A stretch of 48,579 nucleotides of DNA from an uncultured Eubacteriales bacterium (GCA_949289125.1 CASEME010000017.1:1-48579), one strand, 5' to 3'. Numbered from the stretch's first letter, positions 5,614 through 31,231 are shown. The notes: generated from the sequence alone by a model not told the origin. Translations and numbers: made by a program.

Positions 5614-7989
5614 CTATACGGCTTTTTCTACTGCTTTGCGTATTTCTGATGCGTTGCAGAACTTTTGCATTGTGTTGCCGTTGACTATCACCAACGTGGG
5701 TGCTTGCAGTATGCCAAATTGCTTTGCAATGTCAGGTTGTTTGTCAGCAACAATCTCTTCGTACTTGATGCCTGCTTGCTTGAGTATTGTCTTTGCCGTG
5801 CGGCAATTGGGGCAAGTGGAAGTGGTAAACAGCAATGTGCGTTGTTGCGTATTGTCACAAGCTGTTTTGTCGCGCTGTTTGTTGTCGGCAACAGCCTTGT
5901 TCTTTTGATGTTTCAACTTGGAGTGCGCAATATCATACGTCTTTCTGTCCTCAAACTCCTGCAACTTGCCGTCGTTCCAGTTTTGTACAGGACGGTAGTA
6001 ACCGGTAATACGGCTGTACACTTCTGTCTTTTGTCCGCACTTGGGGCAAGTGTAGTGTTCGCCTGTGATATATCCGTGGTCCTTACATACCGAATATGTG
6101 GGCGACATCGTGTAGTAGGGCAGTTTGTAGTTTTCTGCAATTTTGCGTACCAACGATGCAGCAGCCTTCCAATCGGGCAACTTTTCACCCAAGAAAGCGT
6201 GGAACACAGTACCGCTTGTGTACAATGTCTGCAATTCGTCTTGTATATCCAATGCGTCAAATATGTCCGAAGTAAAGGATACGGGCAAATGACTGCTGTT
6301 GGTGTAGTAAGGTGTGCCGTTCATGTTGGCAGTGATGATATCGGGGTAACGTTGTTTGTCGTGCTTAGCAAGACGGTATGTTGTAGATTCTGCCGGTGTT
6401 GCCTCGAGGTTGTACAAGTCGCCATACTGTTCCTGATAGTCGGACAGTCTTTCGCGCATGTGATTGAGCACTTGTTGTACAAACTTTTGTGTTTCGGGGT
6501 GGGTAAGGTCTTTTCTAAGCCACTTTGCGTTGAGTCCTGCTTCGTTCATACCCACAAGACCAATGGTGGAGAAGTGGTTGTTGAATGTGCCAAGATAACG
6601 CTTTGTGTAAGGATACAGACCTTCGTCCAACAACTTGCTAATAACCGTACGTTTTACTTTCAAAGAGCGAGCCGATACGTCCATCATTCTGTCCAAACGG
6701 TTGTAAAAGTCTTTTTCGTCCTTTGCAAGATATGCTATACGGGGCATATTGATTGTAACAACGCCTACAGAACCTGTGCTTTCGCCGCTTCCGAAGAAGC
6801 CACCCGACTTTTTGCGCAGTTCTCTCAGGTCAAGACGCAATCTGCAGCACATACTTCTTACGTCGCTCGGTTGCATATCGCTGTTTATATAGTTGGAGAA
6901 GTACGGTGTGCCGTATTTTGCAGTCATTTCAAACAACAGTTTGTTGTTTTCTGTTTCCGACCAGTCAAAGTCACGAGTGATAGAGTATGTGGGGATAGGA
7001 TATTGGAAACCTCTGCCGTTAGCGTCGCCTTCTATCATAGTTTCAATAAAGGCTTTGTTGACCATATCCATTTCTTTTTTGCAGTCTTTGTACTTAAAGT
7101 CCATCTCTTTGCCGCCCACTATACAGTTGAGCTCTGCAAGGTCGTTGGGTACTGTCCAGTCAAGTGTAATGTTGGAGAACGGTGCTTGTGTACCCCAACG
7201 GCTGGGAGTATTGACGCCATAGATAAAGGACTCAATGCAACGCTTAACTTCGGTGTAAGAAAGGTTGTCTGCTTTTACAAAGGGTGCAAGGTAGGTGTCA
7301 AACGAACTGAACGCCTGTGCGCCTGCCCACTCGTTTTGCATAATACCAAGGAAGTTGACCATCTGGTTGCACAGACTTGCAAGGTGCTTAGCAGGTTTGG
7401 AAGTAATTTTGCCTGTAACGCCGCCCAAACCTTCTTTTATCAGTTGCTTTAGTGACCAACCAGCGCAGTAGCCTGTAAGCATAGAAAGGTCGTGCAAGTG
7501 AATATCTGCGTTTCTGTGTGCGTCAGCTATTTCTTTGTCGTATATTTCGCTAAGCCAATAGTTGGCTGTTATTGCGCCGCTGTTGTTGAGTATCAGTCCG
7601 CCTACAGAGTAGGTAACAGTGGAGTTTTCTTTTACACGCCAGTCGGTTACTTTTACATAGCTGTTGACCAACTCTTTGTAGTCCAATATGGTGGACTTCA
7701 TATTACGTATCTTTTCTCTGTTTTTGCGGTAAAGGATATAGGACTTGGCAACGTCTGCATAGCCTGCTTCGCTCAAAACGGCTTCCACACTGTCTTGTAT
7801 ATCTTCTACAGAAATAGCATTGTCCTTTATTTTGTTTTCAAAGTCCGCCGTCACTCTCAGCGCAAGCATATCAATAACAGAGGGGTGATATTGCTTGTGT
7901 TCTGCCTCAAATGCTTTTGTAATGGCAGTGGAAATCTTTTTGATGTCAAATTCGGCTTTCGCGCCGTCGCGTTTGATTACTTGATACAT
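5614..7989 (-). CDS. nrdD: Anaerobic ribonucleoside-triphosphate reductase (class III RNR) with a C-terminal glutaredoxin/NrdH-like CPxC domain fused on
   Basis: N-terminal ATP-cone, C-terminal Zn-ribbon CPKCG followed by glycyl-radical motif RITGYYRP, then about 100 extra aa containing TCPNC. Confidence 0.9.
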   Translation of the reverse strand: MYQVIKRDGAKAEFDIKKISTAITKAFEAEHKQYHPSVIDMLALRVTADFENKIKDNAISVEDIQDSVEAVLSEAGYADVAKSYILYRKNREKIRNMKSTILDYKELVNSYVKVTDWRVKENSTVTYSVGGLILNNSGAITANYWLSEIYDKEIADAHRNADIHLHDLSMLTGYCAGWSLKQLIKEGLGGVTGKITSKPAKHLASLCNQMVNFLGIMQNEWAGAQAFSSFDTYLAPFVKADNLSYTEVKRCIESFIYGVNTPSRWGTQAPFSNITLDWTVPNDLAELNCIVGGKEMDFKYKDCKKEMDMVNKAFIETMIEGDANGRGFQYPIPTYSITRDFDWSETENNKLLFEMTAKYGTPYFSNYINSDMQPSDVRSMCCRLRLDLRELRKKSGGFFGSGESTGSVGVVTINMPRIAYLAKDEKDFYNRLDRMMDVSARSLKVKRTVISKLLDEGLYPYTKRYLGTFNNHFSTIGLVGMNEAGLNAKWLRKDLTHPETQKFVQQVLNHMRERLSDYQEQYGDLYNLEATPAESTTYRLAKHDKQRYPDIITANMNGTPYYTNSSHLPVSFTSDIFDALDIQDELQTLYTSGTVFHAFLGEKLPDWKAAASLVRKIAENYKLPYYTMSPTYSVCKDHGYITGEHYTCPKCGQKTEVYSRITGYYRPVQNWNDGKLQEFEDRKTYDIAHSKLKHQKNKAVADNKQRDKTACDNTQQRTLLFTTSTCPNCRTAKTILKQAGIKYEEIVADKQPDIAKQFGILQAPTLVIVNGNTMQKFCNASEIRKAVEKAV

Positions 7990-8405: not shown

Positions 8406-9107
8406 TTAGTCTATGCCTCTTAGCTGTGCTTGCGGTATTATCTGTTGTACTGCTTTCAACATATCGTGCATTTCATGTTCGGAATAAGCAGACAGCCCGT
8501 TGGGCGCTATCAGCTCGCCCGAATCCACAAACTGTTGCAAGTAGTAATGCGGGCAACCCTTTATCCACTGCGCGAGTTGTACAAGCGACTGTGTTGTATG
8601 CAAGGGACATACTACCGTAGTGCGGTATTCGTAGTCTACCTTGCCTTGTGCAAGTATTTGCATGGTGGCATTGAGAGGCGCAAGGTCTATATCGGGTATG
8701 CCCACCGTTTTGCCATACAAGTCCTTACTGTTTTTTATGTCCACGGCAACATAATCTGCCAACTTTTTGTGCAGTATGTTGTTTAGTCTGTCGGGGAAAA
8801 AGCCGTTGGTGTCCAACTTAATTTTGTAGCCAAGTTCTTTTATGGACGTCATCAGCGTTTCGCATTGGTCATCAAGTAACGGTTCACCGCCTGTGATGCA
8901 TACACCTTCCAATATGCCACGTCGTTTTTTGAGAAAGGCTAATATTTCTTCTACTGTTATGTAAGACTGTTCAATAGTTGTTACAAGACGAGAGTTGTGA
9001 CAAAAAGGACAGCGTAGATTGCACCCTTTGAGAAAAATTGTGCACGCTGTTTTGTCGGGATAGTCCAACAAAGTTAATTTTTGCAAAGCAAATATTCGTG
9101 TCGTCAT
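8406..9107 (-). CDS. nrdG: Anaerobic ribonucleotide reductase activating protein (radical SAM)
   Basis: CNLRCPFC (CxxxCxxC) radical-SAM motif, GGEPLL. Size and neighbourhood fit. Confidence 0.85.
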   Translation of the reverse strand: MTTRIFALQKLTLLDYPDKTACTIFLKGCNLRCPFCHNSRLVTTIEQSYITVEEILAFLKKRRGILEGVCITGGEPLLDDQCETLMTSIKELGYKIKLDTNGFFPDRLNNILHKKLADYVAVDIKNSKDLYGKTVGIPDIDLAPLNATMQILAQGKVDYEYRTTVVCPLHTTQSLVQLAQWIKGCPHYYLQQFVDSGELIAPNGLSAYSEHEMHDMLKAVQQIIPQAQLRGID

Positions 9108-9222
9108 AGTGTATTTTCCTTGTATTAGTGGTGTTGAATACTAAGGCTTTGCCGCACCTTATGGCACGCCAAAGCCTATGTTGTATTATCATAGTTGCAG
9201 TTTACTAATATTGTGGTATTAG

Positions 9223-12200
9223 TTATGCTTTGATGTATTTGCCGCTTGCCGTACGCAACAACGCATTGTGCGTAACGCCATATTCCATAGCGGTAGTTAG
9301 TGCAGTGGTCAGTGCAGGGCTGGTCTTTGCAAAGCCCAACTTTTGCAACGTTTCTTTGATAAGGTCTGTTGCCGTCATAGATATACCTTCGTCCAATACA
9401 CTTCGCATAGCGGCTACCGCTTCATAAGGCGGTATGTCTTGCGGTTCTACTTTCATAACAGTCATTTTGCGGTAACTGTCGCAGTTAAGACATTCGTCTG
9501 TTGCACGCAAAAACTCTTTGCCGTCTATCGTTTCCCGTTTGACAGGCAGTTTTTGTAGCAGTGTGTTCATACGTGCGTTTATCTTGGGGGTGGAACGCAT
9601 AACGCCATACGAGTTGAGCGTACGTTGCAACAAGAAGTTGCCCGACATCGGTTCTTCTTTTTCTACAATGGCAGTCATACGTTGAAGTATTGCCTTTTCG
9701 TTTGCTGCGTCGGTCAACCAATCGTTGTGCACGTTTTCTGCACGAATGTTGGCGGTAGTGTAACTGCGCAGATACTTATCCTGCGTTTTGGATTTTGCAG
9801 TGTCTGTAGTGGGCGCGGTCAACTTGTTGATATAGTCTTTTATGCGACGTATCTCACGTTTGGGGTTGTGATAGAAGTTCAATGTCCACACACGCATTAC
9901 GTTCCAATTAAGCCGTTTCAACGTTTGAGCTTGCAACAGATACTTGTCGCGTGCAGACCTGTCTGTAGAGCCGTCTGCCAATACTGCCAACGCATAACGC
10001 TTTTTGTTGCGTGGATCGACCACTGCTACGTCAATGCGGAATCCCGATACACCGAGGTCGTATCGACACTCAAAGCCCTGTTTGCGCAGTTCTTTGGCTA
10101 TGTACTTGCCAATGCCTGCTTTGTGCATAGCAATGTCGTTGGAGTTCAATGCAAGCATAGTGCGTCCGCTTGTTGCAAATTCCAAAAACTTCTTAAGGCC
10201 TATTACGCCCTTGCTGTTGGTGCGTGACATATCTATCATAGCAGAGGTCATACAAGAGAATACTATCATTTCTTCTCTTGCACGCGTTACTGCAACATTT
10301 AGACGCCTCCAGCCTGCGCTCTGGTTGAGCGGTCCGAAGTTTAGCAAAAGGTTGCCGTGGCTGTCCGGTCCATAACCTACCGAAAACAGTATAACGTCAC
10401 GTTCGTCACCCTGTACGTTTTCCAAGTTTTTGACAAACAACGGTTCGGGGCGGTCGTAAGCTACATTTTCCAACTTGTATTTTACCAACATAGCATTGAG
10501 CTGGCTTTCCACAGCGTCTTGTTGTGCGGTACTAAATGTTACTATACCAATAGACTGATTGCACGTAGCTTTGTCGGTTAGGCGCTTGCGCACTTCTTCC
10601 ACCAATGCTTCGGCTTCCTTTTTGTTCTGTTTGGTATTGCCTCTGTCGTATGTAGCGTCGGGCAGGTATCGCATAGTAACCTTGCTTTCCATAGCGTCGG
10701 GCGATGGGAAGGTAAACAGGTTGTTGCCATAGTACATAAGGTTGGAAAAGGCAATAAGACTTTCGTGCTTGGAGCGATAGTGCCACAACAAGTGCTTTTC
10801 TGTCATACCAAGTGCCATACAGTCGTCCAACACGCTTTCAAGGTCCTCAAGGTCGAGGTGTTCTTCGTCCACGTAGTCACTGCTAAAGAAGGACGTAGGC
10901 GGCAACTGCTTGGGATCGCCCACAACAACTACGGCTTTGCCGCGTGCTATTGCGCCTATTGCTTCGGCTGTAGGCAACTGCGACGCTTCGTCAAATACAA
11001 CAAGGTCAAATCTATTGGCTTGCGGTGCAATGTATTGAGCAACCGATATAGGGCTCATAAGCATACAGGGTGCAACGAGTGAAAGCAAGTGCGGTATGTC
11101 GTCAAACAACTTGCGCAAGGTGTAACTGTGTGCCATACTCTTTGCCGTTTTTTGCAATGCTACAATTTCTAATGACAACTTACCCTCTGTGTCGAGGTCG
11201 GGCAGACGTGCAATCAGTCTTGCGCGTATTTCCTCTCTCGTCACTCTTTGCAGTTCTTCGTTTATCTGACGGAAGCGCTCTATTTTGTCTTCCAACTGTG
11301 CGCTGTTAAACTCTCTTAGTACTTCGTCTTCCTTGCTTATTGTATCTATATAATAGGCATATATCTTCTTGCGGAAGCAAGACAGCAGTGTATCGCTGTT
11401 AAGTTTGCCCGAAAGCAACGGTTCAACGGCAAAGGATAGTCCCATGTCGGACAATTTTTGCTGTGAGCTGTAAAAACTGCACCAATTTGCCAACAGGTCG
11501 GAGTTTTCGTTCAAAGCAGTGCACTTTGCAGTAAGAAAGTCGAGGTAGTCCTCGTCCAACACCGAATAGTCGCCCATAATGTTGAATTTGTCAAAAAAGG
11601 CGTTGACTGCGTCTTGCATCTGCTCGTATGCCTGCAAAAATCTGCGTGCCGTCACAATGTTGTCGTTGCGGTAAAAGTCTGCGCATGCCTGATTGAACAG
11701 TTGACTGTCATATTCGGCAAATATATCTGTACCAACATCGTACAGCTGTTCCATACGTTGTACAAAAGTATTGAGCTTGTCTTGCGAACGGCGATTGAAT
11801 TTTAACGCAGTTGCAAGTTGCTGAGCAATATCTTCGGTCTGTTGTTGCAACTCGTGCACAGTAAGTGCGGTGTTGGTAAGTTTTATCAGTTGTTTTTCGT
11901 CTATGCTGTGCAGGCAATAGCGTTGTATACGCTTAGCAAAAGCGGCACATTTGGACTTGCCGTTGACGCCCGTGTTGTCTAACTCGTTGCGCAACTGCTG
12001 TAGCTTTGCTGTAGGTTCGGGCAAAACTCTGCAGTGAGAGGAGTACTCGTTGAGCAGTGTTTCACGCTTGCTACGTAGCTCCGAATACTTGTTGATAAGG
12101 TCTGCCGTTTGTCTGTCGGCATTGCTGAATACATTGTAATAGTACTCGTTTTCATTGCACAAAGTCTGTGTCAACGTGTACAACGAGTGCAGTTTGTTTT

Positions 12201-14889
12201 TTGTAAGTGTACGCACTTTGTGACGATATACGGGCAAAAGCAATGCTATGTATTGCTTAAGGTGGCGTATCTGCTCGCACACAATGTCGCAGTGCGTGCG
12301 TAGCGCCATATCCAGCCCTTCGGTGTAGTTGCCGTTGAGCATATCGTTGAAAGGTGAGCTGTGCACTTCGCCACACTGACGTGCGTATGCGGCAAGCTCT
12401 GTCAACGCATTTTCGTACTCGTCAAGCATCTCTGCTGTCAAACCGTCGCAAAATGTACTGTCTATATCCATCACATCGGGTGCGGATATGTTTTGCTCGT
12501 ATTGCAGTACCGCCTGATACAGCGATATGCCAAGATAGTGAGGCGTGTGCAATGCGTCTGTTATTTGCGTAAGACTTTTGCGCACTGCCTGATATTTGTC
12601 GGCTACTGCGTTGAAGTCTGTATCTGCTTTGTACTTGTTGAGTGCAAGCGTATTGAGCAGTCTGTCGGTAACATCGGCTTTGTCTGCCTTGTTGGAGTGC
12701 AATTCTATGCAAAACTCACCTATGCCGATATTGTCCAAACGTTGCTTAACTACCGACAAAGCTGCCATTTTTTCGGCAACAAACAGTACTTTTTTGCCAC
12801 GAGCTACCGCATTGGCAATGAGGTTGGTTATAGTTTGCGATTTGCCTGTTCCCGGTGGACCGTGCAATACAAAGCTCTGCCCTGCGCCTGCAGATACAAT
12901 GGCGTCCAACTGCGAAGCGTCCGCCACTATGGGCAAAAATACGTCTTTGGTGTTGATATCTGCCGTTTTGGCACTTTTTTGCGGCAACAGTTCGGGTTGC
13001 AGTCTGTTGTTGATAAGCGATTTGACAAGTGCATTTTGTGCAAAGTCGTCTATGTGGTATCGTATGTCGCTCCACATAAGATAGCGAGTGAAGCTGAAGT
13101 TCGCCAAGTGCATATCTTCCACAACGTCCCAACCGTGCATACTTACTATTTTGCTACGTACCGACGCCAAAATGTTGTCAATATTCAGCTGTTCACTGTC
13201 CAAGTTGTCCAAACCGCGCAGTTCGATGTTGAATTCCTGTTTCAAAAATTCAAACAAGGTAGTGTTAATTTGCAATTCGTCTGCGCGCACGTCAAGCGAA
13301 TAGCCCTTTCCACCTTCTTTTTTGACCAAAGTGACGGGTATCAATGTGAGCGGTGCGTATTTGGGGAAAAGGCTGTCTTCGCGCTCGTACCATTTGAGAA
13401 AGCCGCCTGCAAGATACAGCGTATCTACACCCATCTCTTCCAAAGCGGTGCGTTCGCGTCTGTACAATGTGTTGAGTGTGGCTTTGAGCTTTGTTTTGTC
13501 CACAAAGGTGCGCAGACGTTTGTTTTTGAGCTCTATTGTGTTGAGTTCTGCCACGCCCTTAAGACTTGCTTTGGTGTCAAAGTTGCGTGCTTTGGCTATT
13601 ACGCCTCCTATGTCGGGAGGGGTGTCGTTGACAGAAAAAGTCTTTTTCTCAAACAGGTATTTTACCGTCTCCGCCAAGTCGCATACCAATATGTGTAGTG
13701 AGCTTACAGACGGACGGAAGTGCAACAGCATATTTTTGAGCGAGAGGTCGAGCAAACGTCTTTCCCATTGTTTTTGTCTGCTAACTGCCGTTTGCGTGGA
13801 CAAAACTTTGCCCTTGCTTAGCAGTTGCGGTGCGCTCTCTACGTCGGTGTCCGATTCGTAAAACAGTTGCGCGCCGTCCTCGCCTACTATTCTTTCGGGC
13901 AAAGGTTTGACGCCACCTGCTCTACAGCGTTTGATGTCTACGCAGTACTCAAAGGCTTGTCCTTTGGCAAGTGCTTGCGAATATGCTTTTTCTGCGCCCG
14001 TATAGTTGAGATTGGCGTCAAAAATGCACTGTGCGTCAAACAAAGTGATGTCGTTGACGCCGTCGCTTGCAAGTTTGCGTACAAGTTCTCTGTCGTTTAC
14101 ATAGCTGTCCGTCATACAGTTGTCGTACAGCCACAAGCCTGCATGCGCGTTGTTTTTGTCTATTATTACTATAGGGTTGAGCCCGCAACTTTCGGCTACC
14201 GAGCAGTACAACAGACAGGCTTCGAGCATAGTAGCACTGCGTGTACGCAGTATGTCACCGTAACTGCGTATGGTACTTGCCTTGCTGTTTTCTTTTTCCT
14301 CTATCTTTTTTAGTTTGAGTGCCTGCAAGGCGGTATATATTGCTGCGGCTATACTGCGCACACTGTTTTTTGTGCTGTCGGCATATCCGCTGAATTGTAC
14401 AGGCATCTTCCAATCTCTAAGTATGTTTTGTACGTCGTTTTTCAGTCTTGCAACTTCTGGGTGACGTGGGCGTACAAAGCCTGCCAACAAGTCCACATAT
14501 TCTCCCTCGGGATTCCAACAGTCAAAGGGGAGCAGAGTTACGCTACAGTCTTTTTGACAGTGTTTCTTTTTGTCTGTGGATATTGTTACGCTAACGGTAG
14601 CTTTTTGGTTGGCATTTACGTTTTGCAAATAGTAGGGTGACAGCGTAACGCCTGTAGTGTCTATCTCTACAGTGCTGTCTGCCGGCAGTTGTTCTATTGT
14701 TTTTACAAAAGGCAGCAAAAATTCGGGCTGACTTTCTATAGTTACGGTTACGCCGTCAATAGGTTCGATGGAGTTGTTTTTTACATACAATCGTTGCACA
14801 AAAGGCACATTGCTTTTGCAATACGCATAGTTGACAGCTTTGCGTACGGCAAGTTCCATTTCCAATACAGATTTTGTGGTTTGCGCCAT
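9223..14889 (-). CDS. 1888-aa multidomain protein: N-terminal DUF4011 / transglutaminase-like (Cys...His...Asp) region, SF1 Upf1-like helicase (AAA_11/AAA_12), Vsr/DUF559-like PD-(D/E)xK endonuclease domain, C-terminal DUF3320
   Basis: Helicase motifs: Walker A GPPGTGKS, Walker B DEASQ, motif QLPP, motif WHYRS, arginine finger VAVTRAR. N-terminal TGase-like CLLYCSVAESCGLNP...HAGLWLYD. Start set at MAQTTK (AAGGAGA RBS) rather than the ORF-track start 15051. Confidence 0.8.
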   Translation of the reverse strand: MAQTTKSVLEMELAVRKAVNYAYCKSNVPFVQRLYVKNNSIEPIDGVTVTIESQPEFLLPFVKTIEQLPADSTVEIDTTGVTLSPYYLQNVNANQKATVSVTISTDKKKHCQKDCSVTLLPFDCWNPEGEYVDLLAGFVRPRHPEVARLKNDVQNILRDWKMPVQFSGYADSTKNSVRSIAAAIYTALQALKLKKIEEKENSKASTIRSYGDILRTRSATMLEACLLYCSVAESCGLNPIVIIDKNNAHAGLWLYDNCMTDSYVNDRELVRKLASDGVNDITLFDAQCIFDANLNYTGAEKAYSQALAKGQAFEYCVDIKRCRAGGVKPLPERIVGEDGAQLFYESDTDVESAPQLLSKGKVLSTQTAVSRQKQWERRLLDLSLKNMLLHFRPSVSSLHILVCDLAETVKYLFEKKTFSVNDTPPDIGGVIAKARNFDTKASLKGVAELNTIELKNKRLRTFVDKTKLKATLNTLYRRERTALEEMGVDTLYLAGGFLKWYEREDSLFPKYAPLTLIPVTLVKKEGGKGYSLDVRADELQINTTLFEFLKQEFNIELRGLDNLDSEQLNIDNILASVRSKIVSMHGWDVVEDMHLANFSFTRYLMWSDIRYHIDDFAQNALVKSLINNRLQPELLPQKSAKTADINTKDVFLPIVADASQLDAIVSAGAGQSFVLHGPPGTGKSQTITNLIANAVARGKKVLFVAEKMAALSVVKQRLDNIGIGEFCIELHSNKADKADVTDRLLNTLALNKYKADTDFNAVADKYQAVRKSLTQITDALHTPHYLGISLYQAVLQYEQNISAPDVMDIDSTFCDGLTAEMLDEYENALTELAAYARQCGEVHSSPFNDMLNGNYTEGLDMALRTHCDIVCEQIRHLKQYIALLLPVYRHKVRTLTKNKLHSLYTLTQTLCNENEYYYNVFSNADRQTADLINKYSELRSKRETLLNEYSSHCRVLPEPTAKLQQLRNELDNTGVNGKSKCAAFAKRIQRYCLHSIDEKQLIKLTNTALTVHELQQQTEDIAQQLATALKFNRRSQDKLNTFVQRMEQLYDVGTDIFAEYDSQLFNQACADFYRNDNIVTARRFLQAYEQMQDAVNAFFDKFNIMGDYSVLDEDYLDFLTAKCTALNENSDLLANWCSFYSSQQKLSDMGLSFAVEPLLSGKLNSDTLLSCFRKKIYAYYIDTISKEDEVLREFNSAQLEDKIERFRQINEELQRVTREEIRARLIARLPDLDTEGKLSLEIVALQKTAKSMAHSYTLRKLFDDIPHLLSLVAPCMLMSPISVAQYIAPQANRFDLVVFDEASQLPTAEAIGAIARGKAVVVVGDPKQLPPTSFFSSDYVDEEHLDLEDLESVLDDCMALGMTEKHLLWHYRSKHESLIAFSNLMYYGNNLFTFPSPDAMESKVTMRYLPDATYDRGNTKQNKKEAEALVEEVRKRLTDKATCNQSIGIVTFSTAQQDAVESQLNAMLVKYKLENVAYDRPEPLFVKNLENVQGDERDVILFSVGYGPDSHGNLLLNFGPLNQSAGWRRLNVAVTRAREEMIVFSCMTSAMIDMSRTNSKGVIGLKKFLEFATSGRTMLALNSNDIAMHKAGIGKYIAKELRKQGFECRYDLGVSGFRIDVAVVDPRNKKRYALAVLADGSTDRSARDKYLLQAQTLKRLNWNVMRVWTLNFYHNPKREIRRIKDYINKLTAPTTDTAKSKTQDKYLRSYTTANIRAENVHNDWLTDAANEKAILQRMTAIVEKEEPMSGNFLLQRTLNSYGVMRSTPKINARMNTLLQKLPVKRETIDGKEFLRATDECLNCDSYRKMTVMKVEPQDIPPYEAVAAMRSVLDEGISMTATDLIKETLQKLGFAKTSPALTTALTTAMEYGVTHNALLRTASGKYIKA

Positions 14890-15199
14890 ATTTTTATCTC
14901 CTTTGCATACAACGGCAGGCAGTGATATTTTTGTATGCCTTGTGCCGTTGCACATCAATATATACCTTACCACACTTTTGCTTTGTTGTCCATACGTGAC
15001 AGCCAACAACATAATTTCTACAACAGACTTTTTTGTGTACCAAACGGTCAAATTGTCAAAAATACGTGAAAAATGTATTGAGAAAGGGATTTTTTTACAA
15101 TTAGTTATTTTACTTTCCTTTTTTGCGCATATGTGGTATAATTACACCAACTTTTGTAAACTTCAACACCTATTGAGATTTACGTTAAGGGAGGTTTTT

Positions 15200-16546
15200 A
15201 TGTACATTATGTTAAGCATTTTGATTGTTGCTATGTGCGGCGCAATCTATTTTGTACAACGCAACAAGCAAAAACGCAACAAGGCAGTATATACATATTC
15301 AGCATTGCCTTTGGCATTGGCGTTTGTGTTTGAGACATGGCACTATGTAGTATTGGCACTTGTTGGAGTAATAGTTGTCGTATCGGTTATTTCCATAGCC
15401 GTACGCGCTGCAAAAAACAAAAAGAAAGGCACTCATTATTCTGAGCGTTCGGAGAGCGTTCAACAACTTGAGCCCGAACACACTAAGGCAGAGTTTATAC
15501 AGCAAGAGCCTCAACAGCAAGCTCAACCTGTTGCCCAACCTGTAGTGCAAGAAGTGCCTACTGTTCAGCACAGTGAGACTGTAGTGCAAGAGAGCACTGT
15601 AGTAACAACTTCTACAGAGGTTGAACAGCAAGAACAGCCAAAGCGCAAGATAGATCCGCTTGCCGAAAAGATTTCCAAACCGCTCAATGGTTCGGACGAT
15701 ACTCTTATAAGATACAACAAGTCGTTTACAGCAAAAATTGTGTTGGGCGACGAAGAGTTGCGCGACCGTTACAACGAGATCAAAAACTTCATTCTTAGCT
15801 TTGAAGGCGTTAAAGCACGTATGAGCTGGAGTAACGAAACTTTCCGCTACAAGCGTCAACCTGTAGCCAAGTTGGCAATAAGAGGCAAGTCTATCACAAT
15901 GTACGTTGCGCTCAATCCGCAACAGTTTGAGGATAGCCCCTACAACGTGGACGACTGTTCGGGAGTAAAGCGTTATGTGGATTTCCCCTCTGCGGTCAAA
16001 CTAAAAGGTCCGCGTGTAACAAACTTTGCAAAAACAATGGTAACAACGCGTCTTGAACAGCTTGATACATACAGCATGGCTATGTATGAGCCGCAGGACT
16101 TCCGTTTGCCTTACCGCCCGTTTACAACATTGTTGCAGGAAAGACTTATCAAAGAAGTAATAGTGCACAAGGGTACAAGCGGCATCAAACGTCTTGCAGG
16201 CGTTGGCGAACTTATTTTGCAACGTGTAGAAGCTGAGGAGGCTGACGAGTTGATGGAAGACGAAGTTGCAGCAACACTTGTCGAGACAAGACATCTCGGC
16301 ATTGCGGCAACGGGCAAAAAAGGTATTATCAATATCGGTGACCTTACCAAAGTGTACAAAGACGGCGACACAGTAACATTGGACGACCTCAAAGCCAAAA
16401 AGATGGTACAGCGTGATGTTGAACGTCTCAAAGTGCTTGCTGACGGCTATTTGGACAAACGTCTTACTGTAGAAGCACAGGACTTCAGCTTGGACGCAGT
16501 TAAGATGATATTGCTAACAGGCGGCAAAGTGGTAGAAGTAGACTGA
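15200..16546 (+). CDS. Membrane-anchored hypothetical protein with a Q/P-rich linker and a C-terminal uL15-like domain
   Basis: AAGGGAGG RBS. Single N-terminal TM helix. C-terminal 70 aa aligns with the ribosomal protein L15 C-terminal domain (KVLADGYLDKRLTVEAQDFSLDAVKMILLTGGKVVEV). Confidence 0.5.
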   Translation: MYIMLSILIVAMCGAIYFVQRNKQKRNKAVYTYSALPLALAFVFETWHYVVLALVGVIVVVSVISIAVRAAKNKKKGTHYSERSESVQQLEPEHTKAEFIQQEPQQQAQPVAQPVVQEVPTVQHSETVVQESTVVTTSTEVEQQEQPKRKIDPLAEKISKPLNGSDDTLIRYNKSFTAKIVLGDEELRDRYNEIKNFILSFEGVKARMSWSNETFRYKRQPVAKLAIRGKSITMYVALNPQQFEDSPYNVDDCSGVKRYVDFPSAVKLKGPRVTNFAKTMVTTRLEQLDTYSMAMYEPQDFRLPYRPFTTLLQERLIKEVIVHKGTSGIKRLAGVGELILQRVEAEEADELMEDEVAATLVETRHLGIAATGKKGIINIGDLTKVYKDGDTVTLDDLKAKKMVQRDVERLKVLADGYLDKRLTVEAQDFSLDAVKMILLTGGKVVEVD

Positions 16547-16693
16547 TAGCACTATTACACAATATTACTTTGCATAAGCTAATTGCCAATACATATTGCG
16601 ACAGGCAAAAAGTTGAGCAAAAGCTATGCAAATGTCACCAACTTGGCACTTGGTGTGCACAAGTACCGTATTTGATTATTACAATACAACAAA

Positions 16694-16730
16694 TAAGGAC
16701 TGTAAGCGTATGCTTGCAGTCCTTTTGTTT
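16694..16730. terminator. Bidirectional intrinsic terminator
   Basis: aaggactgtaagcgtatgcttgcagtcctttt. Confidence 0.7.
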
Positions 16731-16788
16731 TGTAAGTATTTTGTTGTTTGTAATGCAACTGTGTTTGGTTGCAATTTGGTTTGGCGTA

Positions 16789-18312
16789 CTATTCTACACG
16801 CACTGCAATAAAGCTTTGTGCGCCCAACTTAATTTTGTTGCCATCAACTGTTGCATTATTGATAGTAAGCAATGTTTTTGCGTTGGACGGAAGTTTGTAA
16901 GTAGTAGCTTTTGTGCGAGGATTGATAGCGATGTACACGTTGCCACGCTTCAATACGCAAGGAGCATTGCAAACAACTTCGAGGTTGGTATTGTCTTGAA
17001 GCTCGGGTGTTTCGTGGCGCAGTTTGAGCAAAGCACGCACAGTATTTAGCAAAGAGTTGGCGTCTTTTTCTTGTTTCTCTACTGTGGGAGCGTCAGCCGA
17101 ACTGTCGGTAGGCAAATAGAGTGCGTCTGCTGCTGCCTTAGAAAAACCGTAGTTTTTGCTGTTGTCCCATTGCATAGGTGTGCGAGAACCTGTACGGGTG
17201 TATCCGCCCTCTTTGGTAGGCAGTTGAAGGAACTTCATACCTATTTCATCACCATAGTACAGGAAGGGTACGCCGGGCATAGTGAATAAAAATGCAAATG
17301 CCAACTTGCGTTCTTCGGTAGTAAGGTTGAAAGCAGTGCGGCAAGTATCGTGGTTGCCTGTAATAAGTGATATATAGCCGTTGTTTTTGACTGCTTCGTA
17401 TTGTTCGAGGTATTGCTCCATAAAGCAAGATATATCTCTGTCGCTGTCTGCTTTGAAGTAGCTGTTATCTTTGTGACCGTGATAGTCGCGCATAAGCAGG
17501 TTGTATGGGTTGCCTCTCCAATCAAGCAAAAAGTCCATATGAAAACCTGCAGGTATAGCTTGTTTGGGCACGCCCCACTCTGATACAAGAGCGCATTCGG
17601 GATATTCTTCGTCCATCATCTTTCTGATGTCCTGCCATATAAGAGAGGTAGCCACTTTGTCGTCGTCGTTTTTGACAAGTGAGTTGGCCATATCCACTCT
17701 GTATCCGTCACAGCCTTTGTCCATCCAAAAACGCATTATGTCTTTCAAAGCCTCGCGTGTTTTCAAACATTCGGGGCTGTCATAGCGTTGTTGCCAAGGC
17801 TGTCTTACTTCGTAGTAGCCGTAGTTGAGCGCAGGTTGACATTTGAAGAAGTTGACAATGTAAGTGCCGTTGCGTGGACATTCGCCGCCTATATGGGGCA
17901 TACCGTCGCCGCCAACAATCCAGCTATCTGTCCATATATATCTGTCCGAATATTCGTTGCGCTCTGCTTTGCCACTTTGCACAAACCATTCGTGTTCTTC
18001 AGAAGTATGTCCCGGTACAAGGTCCAACAAAACTTTTATGCCCTTATCGTGCGCACGTTGGAACAAGCGAACAAGGTCGTTGTTTGTGCCGTAGCGCGGA
18101 GCAACCTTTTTGTAATCGCGTACATCGTAGCCTGCGTCTTTGAAAGGCGAGTCGTAGCAGGGGTTGATCCACAGCGCATTGCAACCCAACGACTTGATGT
18201 AATCCAACTTTTCGATAATACCGTTGATGTCACCAATACCGTCGTTGTTGCTGTCATAAAAACTTTGCGGATAAATTTCGTAAAAAACCGCGTCTTTTAG
18301 CCAATTTGGCAT
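16789..18312 (-). CDS. GH13 alpha-amylase-family glycosidase (oligo-1,6-glucosidase / alpha-glucosidase-like)
   Basis: DAVFYEIYPQSF, GIGD, LGCNALWINP, GIKVLLDLVPGHTS are GH13 conserved regions I-II. Confidence 0.85.
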   Translation of the reverse strand: MPNWLKDAVFYEIYPQSFYDSNNDGIGDINGIIEKLDYIKSLGCNALWINPCYDSPFKDAGYDVRDYKKVAPRYGTNNDLVRLFQRAHDKGIKVLLDLVPGHTSEEHEWFVQSGKAERNEYSDRYIWTDSWIVGGDGMPHIGGECPRNGTYIVNFFKCQPALNYGYYEVRQPWQQRYDSPECLKTREALKDIMRFWMDKGCDGYRVDMANSLVKNDDDKVATSLIWQDIRKMMDEEYPECALVSEWGVPKQAIPAGFHMDFLLDWRGNPYNLLMRDYHGHKDNSYFKADSDRDISCFMEQYLEQYEAVKNNGYISLITGNHDTCRTAFNLTTEERKLAFAFLFTMPGVPFLYYGDEIGMKFLQLPTKEGGYTRTGSRTPMQWDNSKNYGFSKAAADALYLPTDSSADAPTVEKQEKDANSLLNTVRALLKLRHETPELQDNTNLEVVCNAPCVLKRGNVYIAINPRTKATTYKLPSNAKTLLTINNATVDGNKIKLGAQSFIAVRVE

Positions 18313-29932: not shown

Positions 29933-30976
29933 ATGGCAGAGGATAAATACAACGGCACAACGGGTGGAAAAAATTCTAACTTTGACGAAAGCAAGCACCC
30001 AAGAGATAAAGACGGCAAGTTTACTGACAAGGGGGCGGGCAGTAGTCATTTAGTACGAGCGGTATATAAAAGTCAAGGTAAAGAGTTACCCAAAGACGCA
30101 ACAGCATTGCAAGCGTTGAAAGAGTTGGAAGAAAAGGACGTCGACCCGAGCTATGCTTACAAAAAAGCATTAGAAAATAATGTAAAAAAAGAAAAAGAGG
30201 GTAAAATTGCTATTGACACGCCCGAAGCGAAAGCGGTTTACGATAAAATATCCAAAGGCAATTACTATTCGTTAGAGGAGCTTGACAAGTTGCCTATCTT
30301 TCAAGAGATTGAAAAGGAAATAGTAAAGGCACGAGAAAGAAACGGCAAAAGACTTGGTGTCGAGAGTGGTTATACATACAAATTGGCAACACCGACAAGG
30401 GAAAAACAAAGAGCGGAGTGGGTAGAAAACTTTTTGCAAGGTAAGGGCGTTGATACTTTACCCAAAACACCATTGCAAAAAGGTTACAAAATGACAGTTG
30501 TAGTTGGTTTGCCTGCTTCTGGAAAGTCCACAACAATAGCGACACCATTGAGCGAAGAACAAGGAGCGTTCATATTCGATAGTGATGAAATGAAAAAGCT
30601 CATAGATGGTTTTGACGGTGGCAAAAATGCGGACGGTGTTCATGATGAAAGCAAAGAACTGCTTGAAAAAGCACAAGAACAATTTATTAACGGCAAAATG
30701 AAAGGTACTAATCTTGTTTACCCTATTATAGGCGACAATAGCGCAAAGACGATTAAGAAATTGCAGCCTTTCATTGACGCAGGATACAATATTGAAATCG
30801 CTTATAAAAAAGCTGAAACAACGGAAAGTATAAACAGGGTACTTGGCAGAGCAATTAAGACAGGTAGATTTATACCCAAAAATGTAGTGATGAAATATAG
30901 CAACGAAGCGATAGAAAAAGCATATAATGAAATGCTAAAACAAGGCATAAAGCGTTCAAAATATAGCGAAAAATAG
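29933..30976 (+). CDS. P-loop kinase of the zeta-toxin / AAA_33 (polynucleotide-kinase-like) superfamily with a 190-aa Lys/Gly-rich N-terminal extension
   Basis: Walker A VVVGLPASGKST, DSDE Walker-B-like, RVLGRAIKTGR. AAGGTGG RBS. An alternative TTGACA-17-TAAAAT promoter would make the transcript leaderless. Confidence 0.55.
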   Translation: MAEDKYNGTTGGKNSNFDESKHPRDKDGKFTDKGAGSSHLVRAVYKSQGKELPKDATALQALKELEEKDVDPSYAYKKALENNVKKEKEGKIAIDTPEAKAVYDKISKGNYYSLEELDKLPIFQEIEKEIVKARERNGKRLGVESGYTYKLATPTREKQRAEWVENFLQGKGVDTLPKTPLQKGYKMTVVVGLPASGKSTTIATPLSEEQGAFIFDSDEMKKLIDGFDGGKNADGVHDESKELLEKAQEQFINGKMKGTNLVYPIIGDNSAKTIKKLQPFIDAGYNIEIAYKKAETTESINRVLGRAIKTGRFIPKNVVMKYSNEAIEKAYNEMLKQGIKRSKYSEK

Positions 30977-30988
30977 GAGGAAAATTAT

Positions 30989-31231
30989 ATGACGCATTCT
31001 GAAAAGGTACTAATACATAAAGAGAAGGTTTTATCGCAACTTGCAGAATTGTGTAGAAAATACGGTATTGTTAGTAAACCGGAACATTTGCTCACAACCG
31101 GTATGTTGTTGAATTTTGATGAGGACGGAAATTTTGAACAGTATGCAATAGAAGATTTTGAAAAAGGCAAAAAGTGGGCGTTTGGTGATAAGGCAAAAGA
31201 GGAGTGCTGGGCTTCGCATTTAGGCGATTGA
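30989..31231 (+). CDS. 80-aa hypothetical protein co-transcribed with the kinase (candidate antitoxin/immunity partner)
   Basis: AGGAGG RBS 7 nt upstream. 12-nt gap after the kinase stop. Terminator immediately downstream. Confidence 0.45.
   Translation: MTHSEKVLIHKEKVLSQLAELCRKYGIVSKPEHLLTTGMLLNFDEDGNFEQYAIEDFEKGKKWAFGDKAKEECWASHLGD

Follow-up and report, generated by a model that had tools for sequence, protein, structure and literature searches.

The window analysed here is a stretch of 48,579 nucleotides from an uncultured Eubacteriales bacterium (GCA_949289125.1, CASEME010000017.1:1-48579), and the gene in question lies on its minus strand, where it encodes one large polypeptide that, judged by its sequence, belongs as a divergent member to the ProA family of anti-phage proteins, a sister of the defence protein Hhe and equal to the PADLOC candidate system PDC-S37. 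The longest open reading frame (ORF) of the region extends from 9223 to 15051. Within it, the ATG at 14889-14887 has been chosen as the start, as it follows a Shine-Dalgarno sequence at a distance of 8 nt and therefore is the biologically sensible choice, and with the TAA stop at 9225-9223 this gives a product of 1888 residues. A first-pass annotation of the same DNA had delimited the gene in the same way and had credited it with its own Shine-Dalgarno sequence, and both can be confirmed. A frame of this length in DNA with 44% GC, for which 418 full-length homologues of about 1870-1900 residues with the same Pfam set exist, is a real gene and not a chance ORF.

The family assignment is based on matches that extend over nearly the whole protein. 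With the NCBIfam equivalog model NF058533 ("anti-phage protein ProA"), the protein reaches 1663.3 bits, the cut-off being 1500, and its residues 20-1855 align with model positions 1-1903 of 1903; the PADLOC model PDC-S37 scores 1103 bits, aligning residues 371-1877 with model positions 9-1538 of 1550. Homologues cover 97-100% of the query, and the highest identity to any sequence in a search of 5.8 billion clusters is 63%. An assignment to Hhe proper has been rejected: NF042953 gives 751 bits (750.9) against a cut-off of 2000, with its best stretch at 1083-1737 only, and the PADLOC model for Hhe (PDLC02194) gives 511 bits for residues 941-1691. As the Hhe models thus match only the C-terminal half, ProA is to be regarded as a sister family and not as Hhe itself.

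The domains follow each other in the order immunoglobulin-like (Ig-like) sandwich, transglutaminase-like fold, DUF4011, split Upf1-like superfamily 1 (SF1) helicase, Vsr-type nuclease, and tandem winged-helix tail (Table 1), and the Pfam matches to DUF4011, AAA_11, AAA_30, AAA_19, AAA_12 and REase_MTES_1575 all exceed the gathering thresholds. Conservation of residues, here and in the following, has been judged on a MAFFT alignment of 120 sequences and on an alignment of 31 sequences. The DUF4011 domain that had been read from the sequence in the first pass is indeed found by Pfam, and it holds family-invariant motifs, for example WERRLLDL. The helicase motifs named in the same annotation are likewise all present, with QLPP at 1328-1331 and VAVTRAR at 1532-1538; motifs I, II, III, V and VI of SF1B enzymes are intact in the protein, GPPGTGKSQT, DEASQ, GDPKQLPP, WHYRS, QGDERD and RRLNVAxxRA are invariant or nearly so among homologues, and residues 673-688 around the Walker A motif are identical throughout the 31 sequences. 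By its motifs, the SF1B-type motor is thus intact. In the nuclease domain, which had also been recognised as Vsr/DUF559-like from strings now located at 1609-1625 and 1647-1668, D1620, D1625, D1639, D1648, K1658 and W1662-N1663 are invariant or nearly so, and a profile match above the cut-off (REase_MTES_1575, residues 1597-1686, 68 bits against 38), a fold match and the kept acidic residues all agree, so that this nuclease, too, is intact.

In a profile search, the nearest solved structures are IGHMBP2 as the closest, Sen1, Upf1 and DNA2, all of them matched via the motor only, and there is no close relative with a solved structure among them. As the closest solved cores, those of IGHMBP2, Sen1 and Upf1, act on RNA, and as the models of the related Mokosh proteins MkoA and MkoC match the helicase part, it may be asked whether RNA is the target: a 5'-3' RNA helicase like Upf1 or Sen1 would then survey phage transcripts or R-loops, and the nuclease would cut RNA or RNA:DNA hybrids. 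The nuclease, however, belongs to the Vsr / I-Bth0305I / DUF559 type, of which the characterised members cut DNA, the winged-helix tail resembles modules that bind double-stranded DNA, and among the Upf1-like SF1B enzymes DNA2 and IGHMBP2 work on DNA as well. An RNA target is therefore improbable.

The first roughly 350 residues extend the domain map beyond Pfam, as they are predicted to form an Ig-like sandwich followed by a transglutaminase-like fold that lacks a conserved triad. With the N-terminal 372 residues, a profile search against the sequences of the PDB gave a chance match only, and therefore the predicted model was compared by fold, which indicates that the core of residues 129-348 is transglutaminase-like or papain-like. 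The module is a hallmark of the whole architecture, as its profile finds 3383 clusters at 50% identity, 873 of them at E <= 1e-30, and these are mostly proteins of 1850-2300 residues. A subset of the family with 2100-2400 residues (P0150, P0155, P0173, P0178, P0205, P0208 and similar) carries about 200 extra residues before the Ig-like and transglutaminase-like module.

The fold agrees with the papain/transglutaminase-like signature that had been proposed for this region, but the Cys-His-Asp triad that belonged to the proposal is not conserved, so that the putative peptidase lacks support. In papain-like and transglutaminase-like enzymes, the nucleophile usually caps the central helix at its N-terminus. 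This helix begins at residue 221 in the model, and its cap is Thr/Ser220 (the triad positions were mapped by inference from the secondary structure of the model, not by superposition). An active cysteine peptidase or transglutaminase, being the effector or the activator of a protease-coupled conflict system, would fit the fold, and Cys225/Cys229, His249 and Asp256 of the window protein are in the right general region. However, C225 is Ala in 86 and C229 in 83 of the 120 homologues, H249 is kept in only three and mostly replaced by Ser, Thr, Ala or Gly, and the sole frequent Cys of the central helix, Cys231 (104/120), is Val in the window protein. Pfam gives no transglutaminase or peptidase match even at E = 10, and a function that needs those residues could not be family-wide. 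With catalytic positions so poorly conserved, an active peptidase is highly unlikely, and the domain is best read, from model and alignment, as a degenerate, non-catalytic fold.

Two further regions are less well defined. The long insert between the helicase motifs Ia and II (residues 738-1280) has no significant Pfam match and thus no recognisable domain. The C-terminal tail had been called DUF3320, and the region as such is present, but the Pfam match (PF11784, residues ~1726-1771, profile positions 4-49 of 50) reaches only 12.3 bits against a cut-off of 25 (E = 0.17) and thus is sub-threshold; DUF3320 scored in a few homologues, and weakly in the one that is 63% identical (P0002). In the model, two winged helices are predicted for this tail.

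Table 1. Features of the ProA-type gene and its flanks in the window (positions in nucleotides; residues refer to the 1888-residue product).
Feature	Position	Strand	Remarks
Complete ProA-family gene	9223..14889	minus	1888 codons + TAA stop; from ORF list, translation, start region and NCBIfam NF058533
Shine-Dalgarno sequence AAAGGAG	14904-14898	minus	8 nt upstream of ATG; direct reading of the sequence
Divergent intergenic region, 313 bp	14890..15202		Presumed promoters of the ProA-type gene and of the plus-strand gene 15203..16546
Ig-like beta-sandwich, N-terminal	14533..14865	minus	Residues 9-119 (predicted)
Transglutaminase-like / papain-like fold domain	13846..14505	minus	Residues 129-348 (predicted); apparently without conserved catalytic triad
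DUF4011	13243..13758	minus	Residues 378-549; Pfam PF13195, 129 bits, E = 2e-37, full profile coverage
SF1 helicase core, first part	12679..12969	minus	Walker A GPPGTGKS 677-684; AAA_11, AAA_30 and AAA_19 around it at about 658-718
Insertion of ~540 residues between helicase motifs Ia and II	11050..12678	minus	Residues 738-1280; moderate conservation
SF1 helicase core, second part	10255..11049	minus	Residues 1281-1545; DEASQ 1300-1304, GDPKQLPP 1324-1331, WHYRS 1369-1373, QGDERD 1493-1498, RRLNVAVTRAR 1528-1538; AAA_11 at 1289-1333, AAA_12 at 1354-1545
Vsr-type PD-(D/E)xK nuclease domain	9820..10122	minus	Residues ~1590-1690
C-terminal tail, DUF3320-like region	9226..9726	minus	Residues ~1722-1888; predicted as two winged-helix domains
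GC-rich hairpin, 3' of stop codon, before nrdG	9144..9177	minus	RNA fold -31 kcal/mol, z = -3.9

Relatives were found at no fewer than 596 loci among contigs of one genome per species, of which 80 loci were kept for comparison. These span Christensenellales-like Clostridia, Lachnospiraceae, Ruminococcus, Bacteroidota, Paenibacillus, Collinsella, Nitrospira, Planctomycetota, Proteobacteria and Methanospirillum, and the phyletic spread is thus patchy, across phyla and into archaea. The closest homologue (63% identity) lies between genes of the phosphotransferase system and of phosphoenolpyruvate-utilising enzymes, the second (56%) between genes of giant surface proteins with leucine-rich repeats and Big_2 domains, and none of the 80 loci has nrdD or nrdG nearby. 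Neither the 80 loci nor the about 40 diverse neighbourhoods that were inspected show a recurrent partner gene beyond lineage-specific housekeeping synteny. Within the latter there are scattered neighbours of the Cas1, Cas4 and type I-U, HsdR, reverse transcriptase-protease, MkoA-like and mad8-like kind.

With respect to mobility, 465 plasmid records match in tblastn searches, of which 32 reach a coverage of 80% or more, and on a conjugative IncFIB/IncFII plasmid of Raoultella the gene is found between IS26 and repA, near a GNAT/DUF1778 toxin-antitoxin pair. Phage genomes are essentially without the gene, with one partial match in an unannotated record of 11 kb. The best plasmid match, NZ_OY725931.1 of Bacteroides finegoldii, was not counted as evidence of mobility, as it carries rpsA, ftsK and a glutamine synthetase gene and thus probably is a chromosomal fragment. 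On the same record (L083), a gene annotated as "reverse transcriptase family protein" (15837-16967) stands tail-to-tail with the 34%-identical ProA-like gene.

A separate observation concerns a helicase of the UvrD/HelD type with about 790 residues and a GSGKT Walker A motif, whose gene directly precedes the ProA homologue in nine loci (L009, L010, L012, L017, L018, L020, L021, L022, L077) and is close to it in 14 loci overall, including one of Lachnospiraceae; in L069 it is found two genes downstream. This proximity may be plain lineage synteny, or the two proteins may be functionally linked.

Taken together, the best-supported reading, to which a probability of roughly 65% may be assigned, is that this single-polypeptide helicase-nuclease of the ProA family would serve in stand-alone defence against phages and perhaps against other invading DNA. 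A stand-alone helicase-nuclease of the nucleic-acid-immunity type had already been suggested by the first-pass annotation, and the suggestion gains support from the passed ProA equivalog cut-off, the PDC-S37 match, and the lack of a conserved partner. The statement in the same annotation that the family has no experimentally assigned function is superseded, as the family carries an anti-phage label in curated libraries and its relative Hhe is in use as a defence system. Mechanistically, the Upf1-like SF1 motor would load on nucleic acid and translocate along it, while the Ig-like and transglutaminase-like module, DUF4011, the insert and the winged helices, considering their folds and the loss of the triad, could be surfaces for sensing or binding and for autoinhibition. 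These surfaces would hold the enzyme quiet until it meets replication or recombination intermediates of a phage, or a phage protein, and the thereby licensed C-terminal Vsr-type nuclease would cut DNA and so stop phage replication. The cleavage may be restricted to phage DNA, or it may include the host chromosome, in which case the outcome would be abortive infection. As no neighbour is conserved, a partner gene should not be required, and the gene probably is transcribed alone from the divergent 313-bp region.

Several observations weigh against a role in defence. In the window, none of the five nearest genes on each side is a defence or mobile gene, the surroundings are of the housekeeping type, PADLOC gave only generic matches on the ten flanking genes, and the base composition of the gene is typical of the window. 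Also in the about 40 diverse loci, the neighbours within two genes on either side are mostly metabolic. The clustering of homologues in defence islands, which the first-pass annotation had proposed as a check, appears weak and patchy, with few neighbours of the Cas, restriction-modification or reverse transcriptase type. Furthermore, in 15 loci of Christensenellales-type uncultured Clostridia (L001, L002, L004, L005, L008, L010, L012, L023, L030, L031, L045, L072, L076, L077, L080; homologue at about 10001-15600 in most), the gene precedes comEC-holA-cdaA directly or with one ORF in between, L080 being the exception, in which this block precedes the ProA homologue by about ten genes; the upstream context of these loci is either a HelD-like gene with guaA and guaB, or infB with nrnA. 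In these 15 deeply diverged species, ProA identities range from 48 to 87% with a median of 54%, as compared to medians of 43% for holA and 47% for cdaA. Finally, no primary publication on ProA was found in full-text literature searches, which brought up only proA as a gene for making proline, or words without relation to the subject, and the term PDC-S37 was not found in the full-text search for it; the anti-phage label therefore goes back to the name of the NCBI model and to the candidate status in PADLOC.

In the 15 species, ProA identity does not only exceed that of holA and cdaA but also correlates with both (Spearman 0.67 and 0.76, respectively), which indicates vertical descent under strong constraint. 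Such a conservation is unlike that of a typical fast-turnover defence cassette and recalls the DUF4011 gene that flanks the defence hotspot cDHS1 and is a core gene in every isolate of P. aeruginosa (PMC10250203). The first-pass annotation had stated that its view would be refuted if homologues were conserved core genes without association to mobile or defence contexts, and in this one clade the gene comes close to that, being a vertically inherited, core-like gene. This behaviour lends credibility to a housekeeping role in genome maintenance, in which the protein would be a DNA2-like helicase-nuclease for stalled forks, recombination intermediates or transforming DNA that is inherited vertically and is not primarily immune. 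The fixed position upstream of comEC-holA-cdaA, the housekeeping context and typical composition in the window, the P. aeruginosa core gene and the presence of DNA2 among the profile matches all fit with such a role. On the other hand, the labels of NCBI and PADLOC are anti-phage, the window gene and its closest relatives are found at three unrelated positions, relatives occur on conjugative plasmids beside insertion sequence elements, the spread is patchy across phyla and reaches archaea, and core-like conservation is compatible with an immune role. Genome maintenance as the main function is thus credible but rather unlikely.

A related and still more doubtful idea is that the ProA of Christensenellales-type bacteria is an ancient, vertically inherited core protein of genome surveillance beside comEC and holA, in which the dead Ig-like and transglutaminase-like module would be a licensing sensor, and that the copy in the window has been relocated. 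If that were true, a family with an anti-phage label would turn out to be housekeeping or dual in function, with a part in the uptake, replication or repair of DNA. That the window copy was acquired recently by horizontal transfer has been rejected, as its GC content at third codon positions (0.52, neighbours 0.45 +/- 0.05) equals that of nrdD.

As to the surroundings in the window, the placement beside an nrd locus that had been noticed in the first pass holds, as genes for NrdG2 (8406-9107) and NrdD (5614-7989) follow downstream on the same strand, both above the NCBIfam cut-offs, and farther neighbours are maltodextrin and glycogen genes. A PADLOC match to pVip (viperin) on the neighbouring radical-SAM gene was dismissed as a generic match to radical-SAM proteins, NCBIfam identifying the product as NrdG2. 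Between the ProA-type gene and nrdG, the hairpin listed in Table 1, which none of 200 shuffled sequences could match in folding, has a weak U-tract and was not called by the terminator scan; it is a possible terminator ahead of nrdG. On the other side, the first-pass annotation had assumed a divergent promoter region of about 310 bp, and the spacer is indeed divergent and measures 313 bp, but a promoter of the ProA-type gene can only be presumed to lie in it, as a promoter scan found no strong sigma-70 consensus on the minus strand of this region.

Some side observations were made on these and other genes of the window. The anaerobic ribonucleotide reductase NrdD is fused to a C-terminal glutaredoxin domain (residues ~719-758), and a perfect TTGACA/TATAAT promoter-like site is found at 8082-8055, directly upstream of nrdD and downstream of nrdG. 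The divergent neighbour (15203-16546, plus strand) encodes 447 residues with an N-terminal transmembrane segment, a linker rich in Gln, Glu and Pro, and a C-terminal domain like ribosomal protein L15/L27A, for which Pfam gives 42.9 bits and the NCBIfam rplO model a partial match below its cut-off; such an L15-like domain on a membrane anchor is odd. At a distance of about 15 kb from the ProA-type gene, a plus-strand gene (29933-30976) encodes a protein of 347 residues with a Zeta-toxin / AAA_33 kinase-like domain (Pfam, 49.5 bits) and no NCBIfam match. It is followed by a small ORF for 80 residues (30989-31231), and the pair (29933-31231) could be a module of the toxin-antitoxin type.

In comparison to known systems, the window protein is most similar to ProA as modelled in NF058533, with which it shares the length of about 1900 residues and the domain order from the N-terminal module over the split helicase to the C-terminal tail, whereas it is set apart by its divergence and by the absence of the common Cys231. 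It thereby adds a divergent member from gut Clostridia, with at most 63% identity to known sequences, to a family of helicase-nuclease defence proteins. PDC-S37 is likewise a single gene matched over nearly the whole model, but this model lacks the first ~370 residues with the Ig-like and transglutaminase-like domains, and in PADLOC 2.0 it has no more than candidate status. Like in the case of ProA, Hhe, a single-gene defence system of E. coli, is one chain of about 1800-1900 residues that unites DUF4011 with a split Upf1-like SF1 helicase and with a nuclease of the Vsr type, and the C-terminal half aligns well, but only residues ~940-1740 of the window protein are covered, and the N-terminal third and the insert differ.

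Hhe serves as a working defence system in phage screens (10.1101/2024.10.10.617714; 10.1101/2024.04.14.589459), and there is a phage ORF whose loss makes the phage sensitive to hhe (10.1101/2024.04.14.589459). Seven T7 genes (g1.4-g2 and g2.8) of the Class II DNA-metabolism cluster are potential triggers of Hhe (10.1101/2024.10.10.617714), which suggests that Hhe perceives a process rather than one protein. Expression of Bas63 g40 impaired growth in cells with hhe but not in controls, which points to the sensing of a replication-linked process and possibly to self-damage, and NAD+-regenerating phage genes as well as gp130 counter Hhe (10.1101/2024.10.10.617714). To apply these findings on triggers to ProA would be an extrapolation by analogy.

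Among the more distant systems, the Upf1-like SF1B helicases IGHMBP2, Sen1 and Upf1 share the helicase motifs and the RecA-like core with the window protein, and DNA2 in addition joins a PD-(D/E)xK nuclease to the same type of motor; in all these eukaryotic enzymes, however, the motor alone is homologous, whereas the window protein has a C-terminal Vsr-type nuclease, an insert of about 540 residues, and unrelated accessory domains. The Vsr / DUF559 / I-Bth0305I fold is here a domain of a giant helicase and not a small mismatch or homing endonuclease. The core gene at cDHS1 of P. aeruginosa (PMC10250203), likened by its description only, also encodes a large DUF4011 protein that is kept as a core gene, as are the syntenic orthologues in Clostridia, and the deep vertical conservation in that clade raises the question whether enzymes like ProA and Hhe are purely immune or serve genome maintenance, too.

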